The translations under genes were made by a program, and so were the position numbers. A model generated the notes under the pieces. It did not search any database and was not told the origin of the DNA. It saw only the letters and a list, made by a program, of their open reading frames with translations. DNA of 64,000 nucleotides. It comes from Escherichia phage 132. The number at the start of each line of letters is the position of its first letter. The stretch's first letter is position 1. This document shows, in pieces, positions 3,871 through 38,051 of this stretch. The stretch lies in the sequence record MZ417521, one strand, 5' to 3'.

Positions 3871-4153
3871 TCATATCCTCAATCTGCGATCTAGTAGTCT
3901 TCCAAAGAATACTAATGAGTTCATCGTTATATGGCTGTTTTAGAATATCCCGACTTTTCTTGATAGCATATTCGTATTGAGCAAAATTATTGTTTTCAGC
4001 TGCAATCTGAGCGTGTTTATAAAGACGGTTCAGTTCGCGTTTATTTTTAGACAATAACTTATTTGCTTTTCTTTCTGCTTCAAGACGGTTCTTTTCTTCA
4101 ATAAAAGAAATAAGCTTTTCCACTTCATCATTAATTTCGGGTTTATCAGTCAT
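3836..4153 (-). CDS. Hypothetical 105-aa protein
   Basis: ORF track; same strand and orientation as neighbours. Confidence 0.5.
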   Translation of the reverse strand: MTDKPEINDEVEKLISFIEEKNRLEAERKANKLLSKNKRELNRLYKHAQIAAENNNFAQYEYAIKKSRDILKQPYNDELISILWKTTRSQIEDMIDAYTRKIQAS

Positions 4154-7338: not shown

Positions 7339-7453
7339 ATTTTACCCTTAATTGATTAACCAAGCATTGATAAGCACTAAACTATATTGCGAATAAAATT
7401 CTGGACCAAAATGAAAAATCATATCATTTATAGTATCCATAATATAATTCAAT

Positions 7454-7924
7454 TTAATCATGTTTCCACACCCCATCAGTATTTGACCAAAGCCGCTGAT
7501 TATCTGATCCTCGCCACAGCTTTTTAGTCGGAAGATTTTTCTTATACTTCCCATCAATAATAACATCAACATATTTAAGCATTTCTAGTTGTTTAATATC
7601 TTCAAACTTATATCCTGTCCACAACCAAATGCTTTTATTGGGATAAAGATTTTTTACTGTTTGAACGATGCAATGAATAACATCTCGGTTATCAGGATAG
7701 AGAGGGTCACCTCCGGTTATAGTCAATCCTTCTATATAATCATTATTCAAACATTCAATCAATTGTTCTAGTGTTTCACCAGTGAATGGAATACCATTTC
7801 TAGCATTCCATGTTGATTTATTATAACACCCTTCACATTTATGCAAACAACCTGTAACGAAAAGAACGACCCTGCATCCAGGACCATTAACAAAGCAGCA
7901 CGGGTATATTCTGTCATAATTCAT
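7454..7924 (-). CDS. nrdG: Anaerobic ribonucleotide reductase activating protein (radical SAM)
   Basis: Internal ATG gives MNYDRIYPCCFVNGPGCR... with a 4Fe-4S Cys cluster; ATGA overlap with the upstream homing-endonuclease ORF. Confidence 0.85.
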   Translation of the reverse strand: MNYDRIYPCCFVNGPGCRVVLFVTGCLHKCEGCYNKSTWNARNGIPFTGETLEQLIECLNNDYIEGLTITGGDPLYPDNRDVIHCIVQTVKNLYPNKSIWLWTGYKFEDIKQLEMLKYVDVIIDGKYKKNLPTKKLWRGSDNQRLWSNTDGVWKHD

Positions 7925-8751
7925 AATAATATCCAATTTTTCCAAGCTTCATCAGTAGAATTACAGCGTTTTAGTATAAGATGTCTAGAAACTTTTATGG
8001 CATTTGAGCACTTTTTAATTGAATCATATTTAATACCGTCAACTGAAACGGTTTTGCTAGTTGGAGAAATTTTTCCATACATTGGATTTTTTGAACCAAC
8101 TTGAAGTCCTTTTAAAGCTTTTGAAAGCTTTTGTCTAGATTCCAATGACATGGGAGAATTCTTTTTACCTTCAATAATTCGCTTGCGATGAAGTTCGCGT
8201 TCTTCTTCACTCAAAGAATTGTAATATTTTTTAACACCGTTTGATATAGATAATTTATCTTTCTCAGACCGCTCTCCAGCTAATTTACTTCTAACATCTT
8301 TTCGCTTCATAGCTATGCTTACGGCTTTATTTAAATTTGCTTGATGCTCTGGCGTACGTTTATATTTCTTTAAAGCACGTGAAATAGCTATTTTAGTTTC
8401 TTCTGTTCTCTTTTTACCTTTATTTGCTAAACTATTTTTGTGGCGATGTTCAAGTGTCTGTTCATAAGCAGTTCCACCTTTTCCACCGGGTTTAATATTA
8501 TATGTATTTTCTTTTAGACAATACTCTTCGGTTACAAGTTCAGCTTCTTTATCATACATTTGTTTTTCATTATCAAAAACATGTAAAATTTCTTTATTAA
8601 AATTTTTTCTACCATATTTTAATAAAGCGGCACGAATCAATGTTCCTGATCCCATATAACCGTCATTTATGTTATCGGTGCTATGCGCACCGATATATTC
8701 CTTTGAATTAATTATATTTGTTATTTTATAAATTATATAATACCTATGCAT
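7921..8751 (-). CDS. Free-standing GIY-YIG homing endonuclease
   Basis: 276 aa; N-terminal GIY-YIG module (YIIYKITN...EYIGAH), repeated basic DNA-binding motifs, C-terminal helix-turn-helix; wedged between nrdD stop and nrdG start with overlaps at both ends. Confidence 0.8.
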   Translation of the reverse strand: MHRYYIIYKITNIINSKEYIGAHSTDNINDGYMGSGTLIRAALLKYGRKNFNKEILHVFDNEKQMYDKEAELVTEEYCLKENTYNIKPGGKGGTAYEQTLEHRHKNSLANKGKKRTEETKIAISRALKKYKRTPEHQANLNKAVSIAMKRKDVRSKLAGERSEKDKLSISNGVKKYYNSLSEEERELHRKRIIEGKKNSPMSLESRQKLSKALKGLQVGSKNPMYGKISPTSKTVSVDGIKYDSIKKCSNAIKVSRHLILKRCNSTDEAWKNWILL

Positions 8752-10561
8752 GTTTTACTCGTTTTACCATTTCTTTCATTTTACCTAAATTCCATGGAAC
8801 AACGCTAGGAGTTCCAAGATATCCGCATGTTCTTCTTATGGTGTTCATCTTTTTAGGATCAGTTTCTCCACAAATAGAACAAACAAATCCGTTTTCAGTA
8901 GGAGTCATTTCATGGGTACTTCCGCATGTAAAACATTTATCTACTGGCATATTAACACCAAAATAATCTAAATGTTGTGCAGCATAATCCCATACAGCCT
9001 CAAGACCCTTTAGGTTATTTTTCATATCAGGAAGTTCAACATAAGAAATGTGACCACCTGTCGCAATGAAATGATATGGGGCTTCGCGAGAAATCTTTTC
9101 AAATGGAGTAATATTTTCTTCTACTGAAACGTGGAAACTGTTAGTGTACCAGCCTTTATCGGTAACATCTTTTACACTTCCATATTTTTCGGTATCAAGT
9201 TTACAGAAGCGATAGCACAGGTTTTCAGCAGGAGTAGAATACAAACTAAAAGCAAAACCAGTTCTTTCAGTCCATTGTTTAAGATGAGTATTCATTTTAG
9301 TTAAAATTTCTTGTCCAATATCACGACCAACAAGAATATTCAATTCGTGAATACCAATGTATCCTAGGGACACTGAACTTCTACCGTTTTTAAATAACTC
9401 AATTATGTCATCGTCAGGTTTAAGACGAACCCCGAATGCACCTTCTTGGTAAAGAATAGGAGCAACAGTCGCTTTAACTCCTTTTAAGGAACTAATTCTA
9501 CACATCAATACTTCAAAACATAAATCCATTCGTTCATTGAACAATTCAGTAAATTTCTGTTCATTGAACTGTGTTCCAATATAAGAATCTAACGCAATAC
9601 GAGGAAGATTCAGTGTTACAACACCAAGATTATTACGTCCATCAAGAATTTCATTACCAGTCGAATCTTTCCATACGCCCAAGAAACTACGGCAACCCAT
9701 TGGAGAAACAGGAATAGATGAACCTGTGATAGCTTTATTGTTCTTAGCCGAAATGATGTCAGGATACATTCTTTTGCTTGCACACTCTAGAGCAAGCTGC
9801 TTAATATCATAGTTCGGATCGTCTTTATAAAGATTAACACCTTCTTCAACGAACATAACAAGCTTAGGGAAAATAGGAGTTATCCCATCACGACCGAGAC
9901 CTTTAATGCGATTTTTCAGAATTGCTTTCTGAATCATTCGTTCAGTCCAGTCAGTTCCCGTACCAAATGTAATTGTTACAAAAGGCGTTTGTCCGTTTGA
10001 ACTAAAGAGAGTATTTACTTCATATTCATAAGCTTGGAACGCATCGTATACGTCTTTTTCTGTTTTAGACTGGGCGTAATTCAACGCGTCAGCGATTTGC
10101 CATTTTTCTGCGTCCTCAATATGTTTTGCATAGGTGCGTTTAACATAAGGAGAAAGGACTTTATCTACATTCGCAAAAGTCGTTCCACCATATTGATGGG
10201 AAGCAACCTGTGCAGTAATTTGTGCCATAATTGCAGTAGCAACGCCAATTGATTTAGGAGTTTCAATCTGTGCATTACCGAGCTTAAATCCGTTCTCAAG
10301 CATTCCTTTTAAATCTACTAAACAGCAATTAGTAAATGGAAGAGCAGGGGAATAATCAATATCGTGGAAATGGATAATTCCGCTTTCATGCGCTTTCATA
10401 ATAAAAGACGGGACCATATTTTTGGCAATGTGTTTAGACACAATACCAGCCATAAGGTCCCGTTGAGTTGGAAAAACACGAGAATCTTTATTAGCATTCT
10501 CGTTTAAAAGGTCTTTATTAGTTTTATGAATTAATCCTTCAATTTCTTTTTCAATTGTCAT
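8744..10561 (-). CDS. nrdD: Anaerobic ribonucleoside-triphosphate reductase (glycyl radical enzyme), uninterrupted
   Basis: 605 aa continuous ORF; C-terminal Zn-ribbon and glycyl radical region; no intron-sized interruption. Confidence 0.9.
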   Translation of the reverse strand: MTIEKEIEGLIHKTNKDLLNENANKDSRVFPTQRDLMAGIVSKHIAKNMVPSFIMKAHESGIIHFHDIDYSPALPFTNCCLVDLKGMLENGFKLGNAQIETPKSIGVATAIMAQITAQVASHQYGGTTFANVDKVLSPYVKRTYAKHIEDAEKWQIADALNYAQSKTEKDVYDAFQAYEYEVNTLFSSNGQTPFVTITFGTGTDWTERMIQKAILKNRIKGLGRDGITPIFPKLVMFVEEGVNLYKDDPNYDIKQLALECASKRMYPDIISAKNNKAITGSSIPVSPMGCRSFLGVWKDSTGNEILDGRNNLGVVTLNLPRIALDSYIGTQFNEQKFTELFNERMDLCFEVLMCRISSLKGVKATVAPILYQEGAFGVRLKPDDDIIELFKNGRSSVSLGYIGIHELNILVGRDIGQEILTKMNTHLKQWTERTGFAFSLYSTPAENLCYRFCKLDTEKYGSVKDVTDKGWYTNSFHVSVEENITPFEKISREAPYHFIATGGHISYVELPDMKNNLKGLEAVWDYAAQHLDYFGVNMPVDKCFTCGSTHEMTPTENGFVCSICGETDPKKMNTIRRTCGYLGTPSVVPWNLGKMKEMVKRVKHA

Positions 10562-11031
10562 TTTAAACTCTTTCTAAGCTGCTTCTTAAATGAAGCTATT
10601 AATTGTGTTTTAGTGTCAGATTCATTATATTCAAATCCTCTTTGAAGCATCTCAGCCATCATTTCCTCTTTTCCTAAACGAGAAAATTCCTTTGATTTAT
10701 CTCCAACAAAGTTAGGGTGAATATTATTTTGGGTGTAATCGGATTTTAAATAAGTAAGTAAATTTTCTAACCATTCAAGATAATCAACACCTTGTCCCTT
10801 TAAGCCAGAACGATTAAATTTGTGTTTCATTTGACCTTCTGCTGCATTACAGAGATTACAGAGCAATCCACGTACCTTTCCAGCTTTCGGTCCATTTAAT
10901 TCATGGTCATGGTCAAGGTGATTAGCTTGAACATCAGGATTTAATTCTCGTTGGCAAATTAAGCATTTACCGTTTTGTGCATTATAAAATTTTTGTTTTT
11001 CTTCTTTGTATAATTTGCCAGTCAATAACAT
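10558..11031 (-). CDS. 49: Endonuclease VII (Holliday junction resolvase) gp49
   Basis: 157 aa with Cys-rich N-terminus (CLICQ...CNLCN); start site sits inside a hairpin as in T4 gene 49. Confidence 0.9.
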   Translation of the reverse strand: MLLTGKLYKEEKQKFYNAQNGKCLICQRELNPDVQANHLDHDHELNGPKAGKVRGLLCNLCNAAEGQMKHKFNRSGLKGQGVDYLEWLENLLTYLKSDYTQNNIHPNFVGDKSKEFSRLGKEEMMAEMLQRGFEYNESDTKTQLIASFKKQLRKSLK

Positions 11032-11037
11032 AATAAA

Positions 11038-11062
11038 ACCCTTACCTTAAATAGATAAGGGT
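11038..11062 (-). terminator. Hairpin between upstream gene and gene 49; covers the gene 49 SD
   Basis: 7-bp stem ACCCTTA / TAAGGGT with 11-nt loop, followed by UUUUAUU then the gene 49 ATG; the 3' stem half is the only SD-like sequence (AAGGG). Confidence 0.5.
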
Positions 11063-11069
11063 ATTTATT
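11062..11069 (-). promoter_or_regulatory. Late-promoter-like box (AATAAATA) at the gene 49 hairpin
   Basis: One mismatch to TATAAATA; adjacent to the hairpin that covers the gene 49 SD. Confidence 0.3.
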
Positions 11070-11080
11070 ATTTTCAAGTA

Positions 11081-11527
11081 TTAAAACGCTCGGTCAGAAA
11101 AAGAAATTTGAGTTTCAAGCCATTCAATATATTCTGCCGCAGCTTGCATCAAATTTCCTTCATAACCATCGTTATTTTCTTGCGCAGCCAATTTAGCTAA
11201 TGCATATGAAATGCGTTCACCTTGAAAAGCGGCTTTAGGTTTATGAATAGCTTGATCAACTCGTTCTACAACTTCTTCAATTTCGCCATTTTCTACTGAT
11301 TCAGTATTCCACAAGCACCAATACGTAATTGGCTTATCATAGATGTTAATAATCTTTCCGTCAGAAAGTTCAATTTCAATAATTCCAGTATCAGGTTCTA
11401 TATCATCTTCGCATTCTTTTGCAAGTTCACGAACTTTAAAGACAGTACCTGCACTAAGTTCCGGCCAGTAATTACACAACCCTATATCAGCACGATTAAT
11501 TCTAAACCACTTATCTACTGTAATCAT
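11081..11527 (-). CDS. Hypothetical 148-aa acidic protein (position of T4 pin; not verified)
   Basis: ATG at 11527 with GGAG SD, downstream of an early promoter; the ORF-track start at 11545 is TTG. Confidence 0.5.
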   Translation of the reverse strand: MITVDKWFRINRADIGLCNYWPELSAGTVFKVRELAKECEDDIEPDTGIIEIELSDGKIINIYDKPITYWCLWNTESVENGEIEEVVERVDQAIHKPKAAFQGERISYALAKLAAQENNDGYEGNLMQAAAEYIEWLETQISFSDRAF

Positions 11528-37223: not shown

Positions 37224-37299
37224 TGGTCGAGGCAGTAGGGATCGAACCTACGACCTAGGACTTAGAAGGTCCTTGCTCTTCCTTCTGAGCTATGCCTCG
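37224..37299 (-). tRNA. tRNA-Arg (anticodon TCT)
   Basis: Cloverleaf folded by hand: D stem GCTC/GAGC, anticodon loop CTTCTAA, T arm GTAGG-TTCGATC-CCTAC, 3' CCA encoded. Confidence 0.8.
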
Positions 37300-37303
37300 G
37301 ATT

Positions 37304-37378
37304 TGGCGGACGTGATAGGATTCGAACCTATAACCAATCGCTTAACAGGCGATCGCTCTGCCATTGAGCTACACATCC
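37304..37378 (-). tRNA. tRNA-Asn (anticodon GTT)
   Basis: Acceptor GGATGTG/CACGTCC, anticodon stem ATCGC/GCGAT with loop CTGTTAA, T loop TTCGAAT, CCA encoded. Confidence 0.75.
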
Positions 37379-37382
37379 AAAT

Positions 37383-37469
37383 TGGTGGGGAGTGATGGAG
37401 TCGAACCACCCGAGTCGCAATGACAATGGATTTACAGTCCACACCGCTACCTCTACGGGATAACTCCCC
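37383..37469 (-). tRNA. tRNA-Tyr (anticodon GTA), long variable arm
   Basis: Acceptor GGGGAGT/ACTCCCC, anticodon loop CTGTAAA, long variable arm, T loop TTCGACT, CCA encoded. Confidence 0.7.
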
Positions 37470-37478
37470 AAATTAATT

Positions 37479-37553
37479 TGGTGGCCCTGGGTGGAATTGA
37501 ACCACCATCTGGCGATTATGAGTCGCTTGCTTGAACCTTCCAGCTACAGGGCC
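37479..37553 (-). tRNA. tRNA-Ile/Met (anticodon CAT; likely the lysidine-modified AUA-reading Ile as in T4)
   Basis: Acceptor GGCCCTG/CAGGGCC, anticodon loop CTCATAA, CCA encoded; 1 nt from tRNA-Thr. Confidence 0.75.
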
Positions 37554-37554
37554 T

Positions 37555-37630
37555 TGGTGCTGATTGACGGAATCGAACCGCCGACGTCCTCATTACAAGT
37601 GAGGTGCTCTACCTACTGAGCTAAATCAGC
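37555..37630 (-). tRNA. tRNA-Thr (anticodon TGT)
   Basis: Acceptor GCTGATT/AATCAGC, anticodon stem-loop CCTCA-CTTGTAA-TGAGG, CCA encoded. Confidence 0.8.
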
Positions 37631-37635
37631 AAAAC

Positions 37636-37725
37636 TGGCGGAGGCGATAGGATTTGAACCTATGAGTCGCCGGAGCGACTGCCGGTTTTCAAGACCGGTG
37701 CATTAAACCACTCTGCCACGCCTCC
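37636..37725 (-). tRNA. tRNA-Ser (anticodon TGA), long variable arm
   Basis: Acceptor GGAGGCG/CGCCTCC, anticodon loop CTTGAAA, long variable arm, CCA encoded. Confidence 0.8.
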
Positions 37726-37727
37726 AG

Positions 37728-37801
37728 TCTCCGCGGCAGGATTTGAACCTGCGACATTCTGCTCCCAAAGCAGACGCTCTACCAAACTGAGCTACACGGA
37801 G
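37728..37801 (-). tRNA. tRNA-Pro (anticodon TGG)
   Basis: Anticodon stem TCTGC/GCAGA with loop TTTGGGA, T loop TTCAAAT; CCA not encoded; 2 nt from tRNA-Ser. Confidence 0.75.
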
Positions 37802-37811
37802 TAAATTAAAT

Positions 37812-37885
<74 letters not shown>

Positions 37886-37890
37886 AAATT

Positions 37891-37977
37891 TGGTGCGAGA
37901 AGTGGGACTCGAACCCACAAGGAAATCATTCCGCAGCATTTTAAGTGCTGTGCCTTTACCAATTTGACCATTCTCGC
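37891..37977 (-). tRNA. tRNA-Leu (anticodon TAA), long variable arm
   Basis: Acceptor GCGAGAA/TTCTCGC, anticodon loop CTTAAAA, long variable arm, CCA encoded. Confidence 0.8.
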
Positions 37978-37978
37978 G

Positions 37979-38051
37979 CTGGGAATAAAGGACTCGAACC
38001 TTTGCATCCTGGAATCAAAATCCAGTGCCTTACCAACTTGGCTAATTCCCA
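37979..38051 (-). tRNA. tRNA-Gln (anticodon TTG)
   Basis: Acceptor TGGGAAT/ATTCCCA, anticodon stem-loop CTGGA-TTTTGAT-TCCAG; CCA not encoded; 1 nt from tRNA-Leu. Confidence 0.8.

Follow-up and report, generated by a model that had tools for sequence, protein, structure and literature searches.

The 276-codon open reading frame (ORF) lying between nrdD and nrdG in the window (the whole 64-kb stretch of DNA analysed here) is very probably segH, a free-standing GIY-YIG homing endonuclease gene that is mobile in T-even phages; to this explanation, taken as a whole, we assign a probability of about 0.93. The location of segH between nrdD and nrdG is a real observation, and an already known one. 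The arrangement had been seen before: SegH of phage LZ2 is 100% identical and the gene is annotated as segH in T6 and PP01. The observation is thus ordinary, since segH was named and published, together with its position, in 2005, and annotations of it exist in T6 and in some 70-80 further sequenced phages. SegH is named in Sandegren et al. 2005 (NAR 33:6203), whose title marks it as a homing endonuclease and places segH in the position of mobC in several T4-related phages; PMC2988022 cites this study for seg and mob endonucleases that target nrdD/nrdG.

The gene order in this AT-rich region (GC 0.29-0.33) is gp49-nrdD-segH-nrdG-55.9, which is colinear with T6, as seen from the ORF list and the T6 record. 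The DNA of the locus is 97-98% identical to, and colinear with, that of T6, PP01, RB3, and others, and in the colinear records the gene is annotated as segH (T6 and PP01 among them) or as homing endonuclease. On the minus strand, nrdD (8744..10561), encoding the large subunit of the anaerobic ribonucleotide reductase, forms a single ORF of 605 amino acids, matched by the Pfam families NRDD (PF13597, E 1e-170) and Gly_radical (the glycine-radical domain). It is followed on the same strand by segH (7921..8751; 276 amino acids) and by nrdG, the activase of the anaerobic reductase (156 amino acids, minus strand; Pfam match to Fer4_12/radical SAM, E 4e-48). The automatic ORF call for nrdG runs up to a TTG at 7945, giving a 25-nt overlap with segH; because nrdG is annotated from the ATG in T6, LZ2, and other records, 7454..7924 is the likely extent of the gene.

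The junctions can be read directly from the sequence. The stop of nrdD and the start of segH overlap by 8 nt (8744-8751, common letters ATGCATAG), while the stop of segH and the ATG of nrdG overlap by 4 nt (7921-7924, common letters ATGA), which bears out the prediction of a 276-amino-acid frame overlapping both neighbours. The description of nrdD as one continuous gene of 605 codons is likewise confirmed by the single ORF and by Rfam, which detects no group I intron anywhere in the 64-kb window (the nrdD genes of T4 and EC128, used as positive controls, are detected). The endonuclease gene is free-standing in the sense that it has an ORF to itself, flanked by two complete genes and not embedded in an intron.

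The assignment to segH relies primarily on identity with deposited proteins. In tblastn searches, the 276-amino-acid protein is 100% identical over 276 amino acids to SegH of LZ2 (AY262139.2), the two genes differing by 0 amino acids and 4 nt, and it is 98.6% identical to the segH product of T6 (98.6-99.6% for T6, RB7, and others). It also matches PHROG 314 'homing endonuclease' (E 4e-60), and its N-terminal domain is 41-53% identical to the products of genes annotated segB, segD, or segE. Phage U5 is reportedly another SegH carrier. In LZ2 and T6, SegH occupies the same nrdD/nrdG position, with the same 8-nt and 4-nt overlaps and the same divergent nrdD tail (see below) as in the window; nothing of substance differs, the flanking nrdD and nrdG being about 3-4% different in DNA, and the first 40 nt of the window nrdG representing a haplotype unlike that of LZ2.

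Pfam evidence for the catalytic domain is sub-threshold: SegE_GIY-YIG (PF19835) scores 18.6 bits on SegH, below its cut-off of 25, and no match to SegH is reported for the canonical GIY-YIG model, PF01541. Many homologues at 35-65% identity do have PF01541 or PF19835. Comparison of the single SegH sequence with PDB sequences also yields only noise (best E 0.13). Structure prediction and fold search were used because of this sub-threshold Pfam evidence. In the AlphaFold2 model, residues 1-90 reach a pLDDT of 95-98, and low confidence is found for the last 17 residues and for residues 154-168. The best Foldseek matches of the model are the I-TevI catalytic domain structures 1MK0 and 1LN0 (probability 1.00, TM (target) 0.62-0.67, about 100 aligned columns), and the profile of SegH homologues matches 1MK0 at E 4e-4. 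Structure model, fold search, and profile match together support a predicted GIY-YIG catalytic domain at residues 1-95 (8467..8751, minus strand). The GIY-YIG identity proposed in the original prediction, for which Pfam support is weak, is thus firmly supported by the profile match to I-TevI and by the fold search of the predicted structure.

The motif residues of SegH are IIY at 6-8, YIG at 19-21, E69/E71, and N85; across 49 homologues, Y8, Y19-I20-G21, E69/E71, and N85 show little or no variation. In this 49-sequence family alignment, from which a T4 sequence was left out, the window copy retains 21 of the 21 invariant columns. The gene is neither degenerate in its motif nor fixed in all relatives, as the invariant residues are intact and most relatives lack it. 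In the profile alignment, Y8, Y19, G21, and N85 align with Y6, Y17, G19, and N90 of I-TevI, and a SegH glutamate lies no more than one or two positions away from E75. Arg27 of I-TevI lies opposite a 9-residue gap in the SegH-family profile: SegH-type domains are devoid of the first helix, which bears Arg27 in I-TevI; a DGYMGSG loop takes its place. Among conserved basic residues, R40, on the sole helix between strands 2 and 3, lies nearest; residue 40 is K in most homologues, and the KM16 variant, at 90% identity, has Q. Judging from the aligned sequences, the lack of an assignable Arg27 equivalent is a trait of the whole Seg-like subfamily, rather than a defect of the window copy.

Downstream of the catalytic domain, a NUMOD3 DNA-binding motif is predicted at residues 200-228 (8068..8154, minus strand; Pfam PF07460, E 1.2e-7, 32 bits, above the cut-off of 20.4). 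A putative C-terminal I-TevI-like DNA-binding (helix-turn-helix) region follows at residues 226-273 (7933..8076, minus strand); it scores 21.1 bits with PF20987 (I-TevI_DNA-bd, E 2.9e-4), short of the cut-off of 27, and gives a weak Foldseek match to 1I3J in a part of the model that is of low confidence. SegH would thus have the same modular plan as its best structural match, I-TevI of the td intron (1MK0, 1LN0, 1I3J), an N-terminal GIY-YIG domain some 95 residues long being joined through a linker to DNA-binding modules at the C-terminus. The two proteins are nevertheless only 24-26% identical, and I-TevI is intron-encoded, whereas SegH is free-standing.

SegH is found at no less than 90% identity in 72 records, and segH+ records number 72-80 among about 840 related phage records (about 9%), the arrangement being repeated in about 70 complete genomes. 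The empty site is the commonest state: the majority of the 840 records have an uninterrupted nrdD/nrdG junction (recovered as one 796-nt piece), and in most relatives nrdD and nrdG overlap directly, by 4 nt. All eight close IMG/VR relatives (8/8) have an empty segH site, and the NrdG-anchored IMG/VR loci are all empty-site or intron-only. Close SegH was not found in the IMG/VR viral contigs (best match 54% over 90 residues), so segH+ comparisons were drawn from GenBank phage records.

Presence of segH goes along with an unusual nrdD 3' end. Over the last 69 nt of nrdD (8744..8812, minus strand), which correspond to the last 22 codons and the stop (TPSVVPWNLGKMKEMVKRVKHA followed by the stop codon), identity to empty-site phages falls abruptly to 58%, versus 96% over the remaining nrdD; empty-site phages and phages with mobC have the alternative tail, NPNERGFNLGKNKEIMHRVKHQ followed by the stop codon. 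The divergent version was found in 80 phage records, each at no less than 95% identity, a number similar to that of segH carriers, with the overlap of the two sets checked on sampled rows. In these sampled rows, segH appears linked with the recoded 22-codon nrdD 3' end. The RRTCGYLG codons of the NrdD glycyl-radical motif (8813..8836, minus strand, from the translation) stand immediately 5' of the divergence break and may represent the neighbourhood of the SegH target. In a comparison of four segH+ phages, the cassette formed by the nrdD tail and segH is 0.5-0.9% divergent, versus about 3.8% for the part of nrdD upstream of it. In LZ2, the 'empty-site' nrdG haplotype sets in directly after the segH stop; this switch and the abrupt fall in identity within nrdD indicate recombination breakpoints at the borders of the element. 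This conservation above the flanks and the patchy distribution fit an apparently active mobile element. Together, the carriage of about 9%, the link with the recoded tail, and the conserved cassette provide a database-wide view, which is a mild addition to what was known.

Two further readings of the junction were set aside. Insertion of segH at nrdD codons 599-601, suggested by a shared 10-mer (CATGCATAGG, chance expectation roughly 0.02-0.05), leaves the divergence farther upstream unexplained. The nrdG 5' haplotype (DRIYPCC vs DRFYPCD) is not a strict marker of the SegH target, because the segH+ phage LZ2 shows the empty-site form and the mobC-like SA20RB that of the window.

A further proposal is that the mobile unit comprises segH and a replacement of the NrdD C-terminus, the 22 recoded codons serving as a portable target-site immunity patch. 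SegH would then recognise the standard nrdD tail or the junction, the cassette would bring a functional, unrecognisable substitute, and the end of an essential enzyme would be rewritten at every homing event. We consider this improbable; segH+ DNA is reportedly also cut by SegH in the 2005 work of Sandegren, Nord and Sjöberg, which would count against an immunity role.

As regards expression, no T4 late promoter (TATAAATA) for segH is found in 7400-11100, and the sole good sigma-70/middle-like site, at 7847-7820, is inside nrdG. The gene would thus have no promoter of its own and be read from the nrdD message. Because the segH start codon is 8 nt inside the nrdD end, translation would be carried out by ribosomes terminating on nrdD, probably at a low level. 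The protein is proposed to join a catalytic domain of the I-TevI type to DNA-binding modules, NUMOD3 and helix-turn-helix. In a mixed infection, SegH would cut the nrdD/nrdG region of the co-infecting phage, perhaps with its recognition or cleavage site in the nrdD 3' end near the glycyl-radical codons, and repair of the break by recombination with the segH+ genome would copy segH, along with neighbouring markers, into the cleaved DNA. Sandegren and colleagues reportedly observed both DNA cleavage by SegH and its homing during mixed infection.

Among the alternatives to an active homing endonuclease gene, the most serious is a difference of emphasis: an active nuclease may be selected mainly for its benefit to the phage, by cutting the nrd region of a competitor during co-infection, thereby causing marker exclusion and favouring linked genes. 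The linkage of segH with its own nrdD 3' end is what hitch-hiking of flanking markers would produce, and marker exclusion has been described for SegF and SegG, two Seg enzymes of T4. Nevertheless, the majority of relatives thrive without segH, and the sequence does not tell an advantage for the phage apart from mere selfishness; as the main force of selection, we regard phage benefit as possible, but rather unlikely. It is compatible with the homing explanation, which it extends.

It is far less probable that segH is a defunct or domesticated remnant, no longer cutting DNA and kept since its loss would disturb nrdG expression. Overlap of both segH ends with genes of an essential pathway would suit such a remnant, as would the unidentifiable Arg27 equivalent and the sub-threshold Pfam GIY-YIG scores, but the 276-codon ORF is full length, no family-invariant position has been lost (21/21), and the model of the catalytic domain is very confident. 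Moreover, most relatives evidently work without segH, with nrdD and nrdG overlapping directly, and the cassette is conserved above its flanks across diverged backgrounds, which speaks for recent spread, not decay. That the ORF is not a gene, having arisen as a chance open frame or as part of a mis-assembled nrdD/nrdG junction, can be practically dismissed: the sole point in its favour is an AT-rich composition, which favours long chance ORFs, whereas the protein has 504 homologues at E ≤1e-5 and a confident predicted fold, and an identical protein was deposited independently, with the arrangement recurring in complete genomes.

The comparison of the junction with T4 and relatives that had been called for places mobC in T4, no insert in most phages, and segH in 72-80 records. 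The original prediction had opposed this arrangement to the group I intron of T4 nrdD, as a different mobile element at the same hotspot. The hotspot part stands, but the choice of the intron as the T4 counterpart does not. The counterpart is mobC, a free-standing gene in exactly the same nrdD/nrdG slot, promoter-less and overlapping its neighbours like segH. MobC is nevertheless an HNH enzyme and SegH a GIY-YIG enzyme, the two families being unrelated, and with mobC the standard nrdD tail is intact, and mobC itself starts with a second copy of nrdG codons 1-7. T4-type MobC is present in 32 records only; its cleavage activity is entered as ND in Table 1 of PMC2988022.

The intron site itself was mapped by aligning nrdD with the spliced nrdD of T4, EC128, and L012 (intron removed), and corresponds to nrdD nt 538|539. 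In the window, the vacant site of the T4-type intron thus lies between 10024 and 10023 (within 10003..10044, minus strand), 1.3 kb upstream of the segH slot. The window, T6, and empty-site phages have one exon haplotype around this site and intron-bearing phages another. EC128 has segH and the nrdD intron together. Since the sites are independent and EC128 has both, segH and the intron are not alternative arrangements of one element. I-TevII, encoded by the T4 nrdD (sunY) group I intron, resembles SegH in being a GIY-YIG enzyme that targets nrdD at the same hotspot, but it is intron-encoded, while SegH is free-standing, and the two align at 23% identity. The locus can be viewed as a textbook case in which several selfish nucleases vie for the genes of ribonucleotide reductase in T-even phages, the nrdD/nrdG junction being empty or containing segH or mobC, and the I-TevII intron occurring independently inside nrdD. 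In Cronobacter phage leE, a 47%-identical SegH homologue is also found directly 3' of nrdD, with nrdG 2.8 kb away.

The source phage of the window is T4-like (genus Tequatrovirus), and in a search of phage records the 3.3-kb region around segH is colinear with that of T6, PP01, RB3, EC128, and many others, at 97-98% identity. On the minus strand, gp49 (10558..11031, from the ORF list; endonuclease VII confirmed by Pfam) is followed by nrdD (8744..10561; Pfam PF13597 at E 1e-170, together with a glycine-radical domain), segH (7921..8751), and, directly after it, nrdG (Pfam 4Fe-4S/radical SAM). The original prediction placed here a 276-aa ORF overlapping both the nrdD stop and the nrdG start, which sequence reading bears out at both junctions: the nrdD stop and segH start share 8 nt (ATGCATAG), and the segH stop and nrdG ATG share 4 nt (ATGA). 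The TTG listed as the nrdG start at 7945 is an upstream extension, the ATG being annotated in T6 and LZ2. nrdD is, as predicted, continuous (a single ORF of 605 aa), and the ORF was rightly recognized as a free-standing GIY-YIG homing endonuclease. It is SegH.

In a tblastn search of a phage collection, the protein is 100% identical to the product annotated as 'segH: SegH' in phage LZ2, whose 2.7-kb entry (AY262139.2) covers a partial nrdD, the complete segH, and a partial nrdG; the window differs from LZ2 segH DNA by four substitutions, all synonymous. The same gene is also named segH in the T6 and PP01 records. The ORF is the already published SegH, at its published position, in a phage close to T6, RB3, and PP01, and the arrangement is already known rather than new. 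SegH made in vitro is reported to cut near its own locus and to cut segH+ and segH- DNA alike, and segH reportedly homes during mixed infections. Records of the RB3 group (KM606994-KM606999, NC_025419: RB3, RB5, RB6, RB7, RB9, and RB10) label the orthologue 'segD', and the T6 record AP018814 carries unrelated feature names at the locus (nrdD, for instance, is labelled 'RNA ligase 1 and tail fiber attachment catalyst'); both look like annotation errors.

Pfam detects NUMOD3 above threshold in SegH (residues 200-228), and, below threshold, an I-TevI DNA-binding domain (residues 226-273) and a SegE-type GIY-YIG match. Homologues number 504 at E <= 1e-5, many of them with PF01541 or PF19835. The window SegH keeps every position that is invariant in a 49-sequence alignment (Y8, T11, Y19, G21, H23, T25, D30, Y32, G34-S35-G36, G47, F51, M65, E69, V73, Y84, N85, G89, G90, and G93). 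The family profile matches the I-TevI catalytic domain (1MK0, 1LN0; E 4e-4), aligning SegH Y8, Y19, G21, and N85 with I-TevI Y6, Y17, G19, and N90. In the AlphaFold2 model (pLDDT 95-98 over residues 1-90), the closest PDB folds are again those of this domain (probability 1.00, TM 0.62-0.67), the I-TevI DNA-binding domain being a weak fourth match. No counterpart of the I-TevI Arg27 helix can be assigned in the SegH subfamily; as this is common to the whole Seg-like group, it does not by itself mark the window copy as degenerate. Between strands 2 and 3 SegH has just one helix, with R40 at a position where most homologues have K. SegH of Salmonella phage KM16 (90% identical) has Q at R40, the sole conserved basic residue of that helix; this variant may be altered or have lost activity.

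The T4 nrdD intron (1033 nt, with I-TevII) interrupts the gene after nt 538, equivalent to the boundary between window positions 10024 and 10023. Rfam finds the intron in T4 and EC128, both positive in the same search that returned no intron across the whole window. One exon haplotype at this site, intron-less, is common to the window, T6, and empty-site phages (those without a gene between nrdD and nrdG); the other, in the intron-bearing T4, EC128, and an additional locus (L012), differs by eight synonymous substitutions, all lying between 1 nt upstream and 20 nt downstream of the site. In at least four further records (RPN226, GRNsp7, SYGD1, and N2), the match falls into two pieces whose total span exceeds the query by about 1 kb, which suggests that they too carry the intron and segH; their annotation is consistent with this. 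The original prediction treated segH as an alternative to the T4 intron, wrongly: the two sites are 1.3 kb apart and EC128 has both elements, which are therefore independent.

The positional alternative to segH is mobC, an HNH-type gene occupying the nrdD/nrdG slot of T4 and SA20RB; the T4 type of MobC is limited to 32 records. T4 mobC opens with a copy of the first seven nrdG codons, MNYDRIY (T4 locus L002, 4519-4539 minus vs 3897-3917), and its overlap with the nrdD stop is the ATGA also seen where nrdD meets nrdG in empty-site phages; mobC thus seems to have entered nrdG just within its 5' end, with a short duplication.

Patchy distribution, use of the same slot by other elements, and an age below that of the surroundings all argue for segH being mobile. 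SegH is found at >=90% identity in 72 phage records. A composite empty-site query, joining the nrdD 3' end to the nrdG 5' end, gives a single 796-nt match in the bulk of 840 records (in vB_Eco_CP, for example, the two genes share 4 nt). All eight close relatives from IMG/VR are empty here, and in more distant relatives other genes fill 1.3-3.9 kb. The cassette of nrdD tail and segH diverges by 0.5-0.9% among the window, T6, LZ2, and EC128, versus about 3.8% for upstream nrdD, and in LZ2 the nrdG haplotype changes to the empty-site type right after the segH stop; this pattern points to an element younger than its surroundings. The first ~40 nt of nrdG (window 7885-7924) exist as two haplotypes: DRIYPCCFVN is shared by the window, T6, EC128, and SA20RB; LZ2 and the empty-site phages have DRFYPCDFVN. 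The two are separated by 7-8 substitutions in 30 nt, including a Cys/Asp change, and their linkage to segH is not strict.

In the Pseudotevenvirus leE, a Cronobacter phage (L055 1294-7609), nrdD and nrdG lie 3.7 kb apart. Between them come a SegH-like gene immediately next to nrdD, four hypothetical genes, and, adjoining nrdG, a second putative homing endonuclease; an IMG/VR locus (L032) shares this arrangement. In an IMG/VR contig (L013 2687-2930), nrdD diverges strongly from that of the window over its first ~240 nt (14-27 mismatches in every 60 nt, elsewhere 0-9), which marks a mosaic boundary close to where gp49 meets nrdD. Elsewhere in the window, ten tRNA matches, one barely over threshold (30.2 bits), are packed within 825 nt (37227-38051, minus), too tightly for a segB-type endonuclease gene to fit among them.

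All segH+ phages examined have an nrdD whose final 22 codons encode TPSVVPWNLGKMKEMVKRVKHA*, versus NPNERGFNLGKNKEIMHRVKHQ* in empty-site and mobC phages. Between the window and empty-site phages, the last 69 nt of nrdD are 58% identical, versus 96% for the remainder. The divergent tail is present, always at >=95% identity, in 80 phage records, approximately the number of segH-carrying records when totals, rather than individual records, are compared; it is absent from all sampled relatives of other genera. Divergence starts directly after the RRTCGYLG codons (window 8813-8836), which encode the glycyl-radical motif of NrdD, Gly580 being the radical site in T4. In Cronobacter phage leE, the 47%-identical SegH homologue follows nrdD immediately on its 3' side, and nrdG comes 2.8 kb later. 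From the tail linkage, this break point, and the leE homologue, we infer, at roughly even odds, that SegH-family genes are linked to the nrdD 3' end, with a recognition or cleavage site in or close to the conserved glycyl-radical codons. The only possibly novel angle is what the recoded NrdD tail does, and this may well be covered by the 2005 paper on SegH.

Where the nrdD stop meets the segH start (window 8742-8751, minus) lies the 10-mer CATGCATAGG, which recurs in empty-site phage nrdD, 16 nt further upstream (L004 1876-1885), where ATG-CAT-AGG is in frame and encodes NrdD M-H-R; SegH also starts with M-H-R. The chance expectation is roughly 0.02-0.05; the repeat might be a trace left by the original insertion. 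In Escherichia phage FL18 (PP400780.1, 105304-105380), the segH-linked tail lies beneath two 'homing endonuclease' features, which suggests that the locus has been rearranged there in yet another way.

No T4 late-promoter consensus was found in 7400-11100, and the sole strong sigma-70/middle-like site lies within nrdG, so that segH looks like a promoter-less cassette transcribed with nrdD. Its AUG is 8 nt inside nrdD, with only a weak GAG upstream, and resembles the overlapping starts of segC, segF, mobA, and mobC, which have been suggested to limit endonuclease translation (PMC2988022). About 36 nt inside nrdG, a hairpin that resembles a terminator and has a T-run after it (window 7865-7888, minus) is near-conserved in empty-site phages and recalls the intragenic terminator of T4 mobE (PMC2790892).
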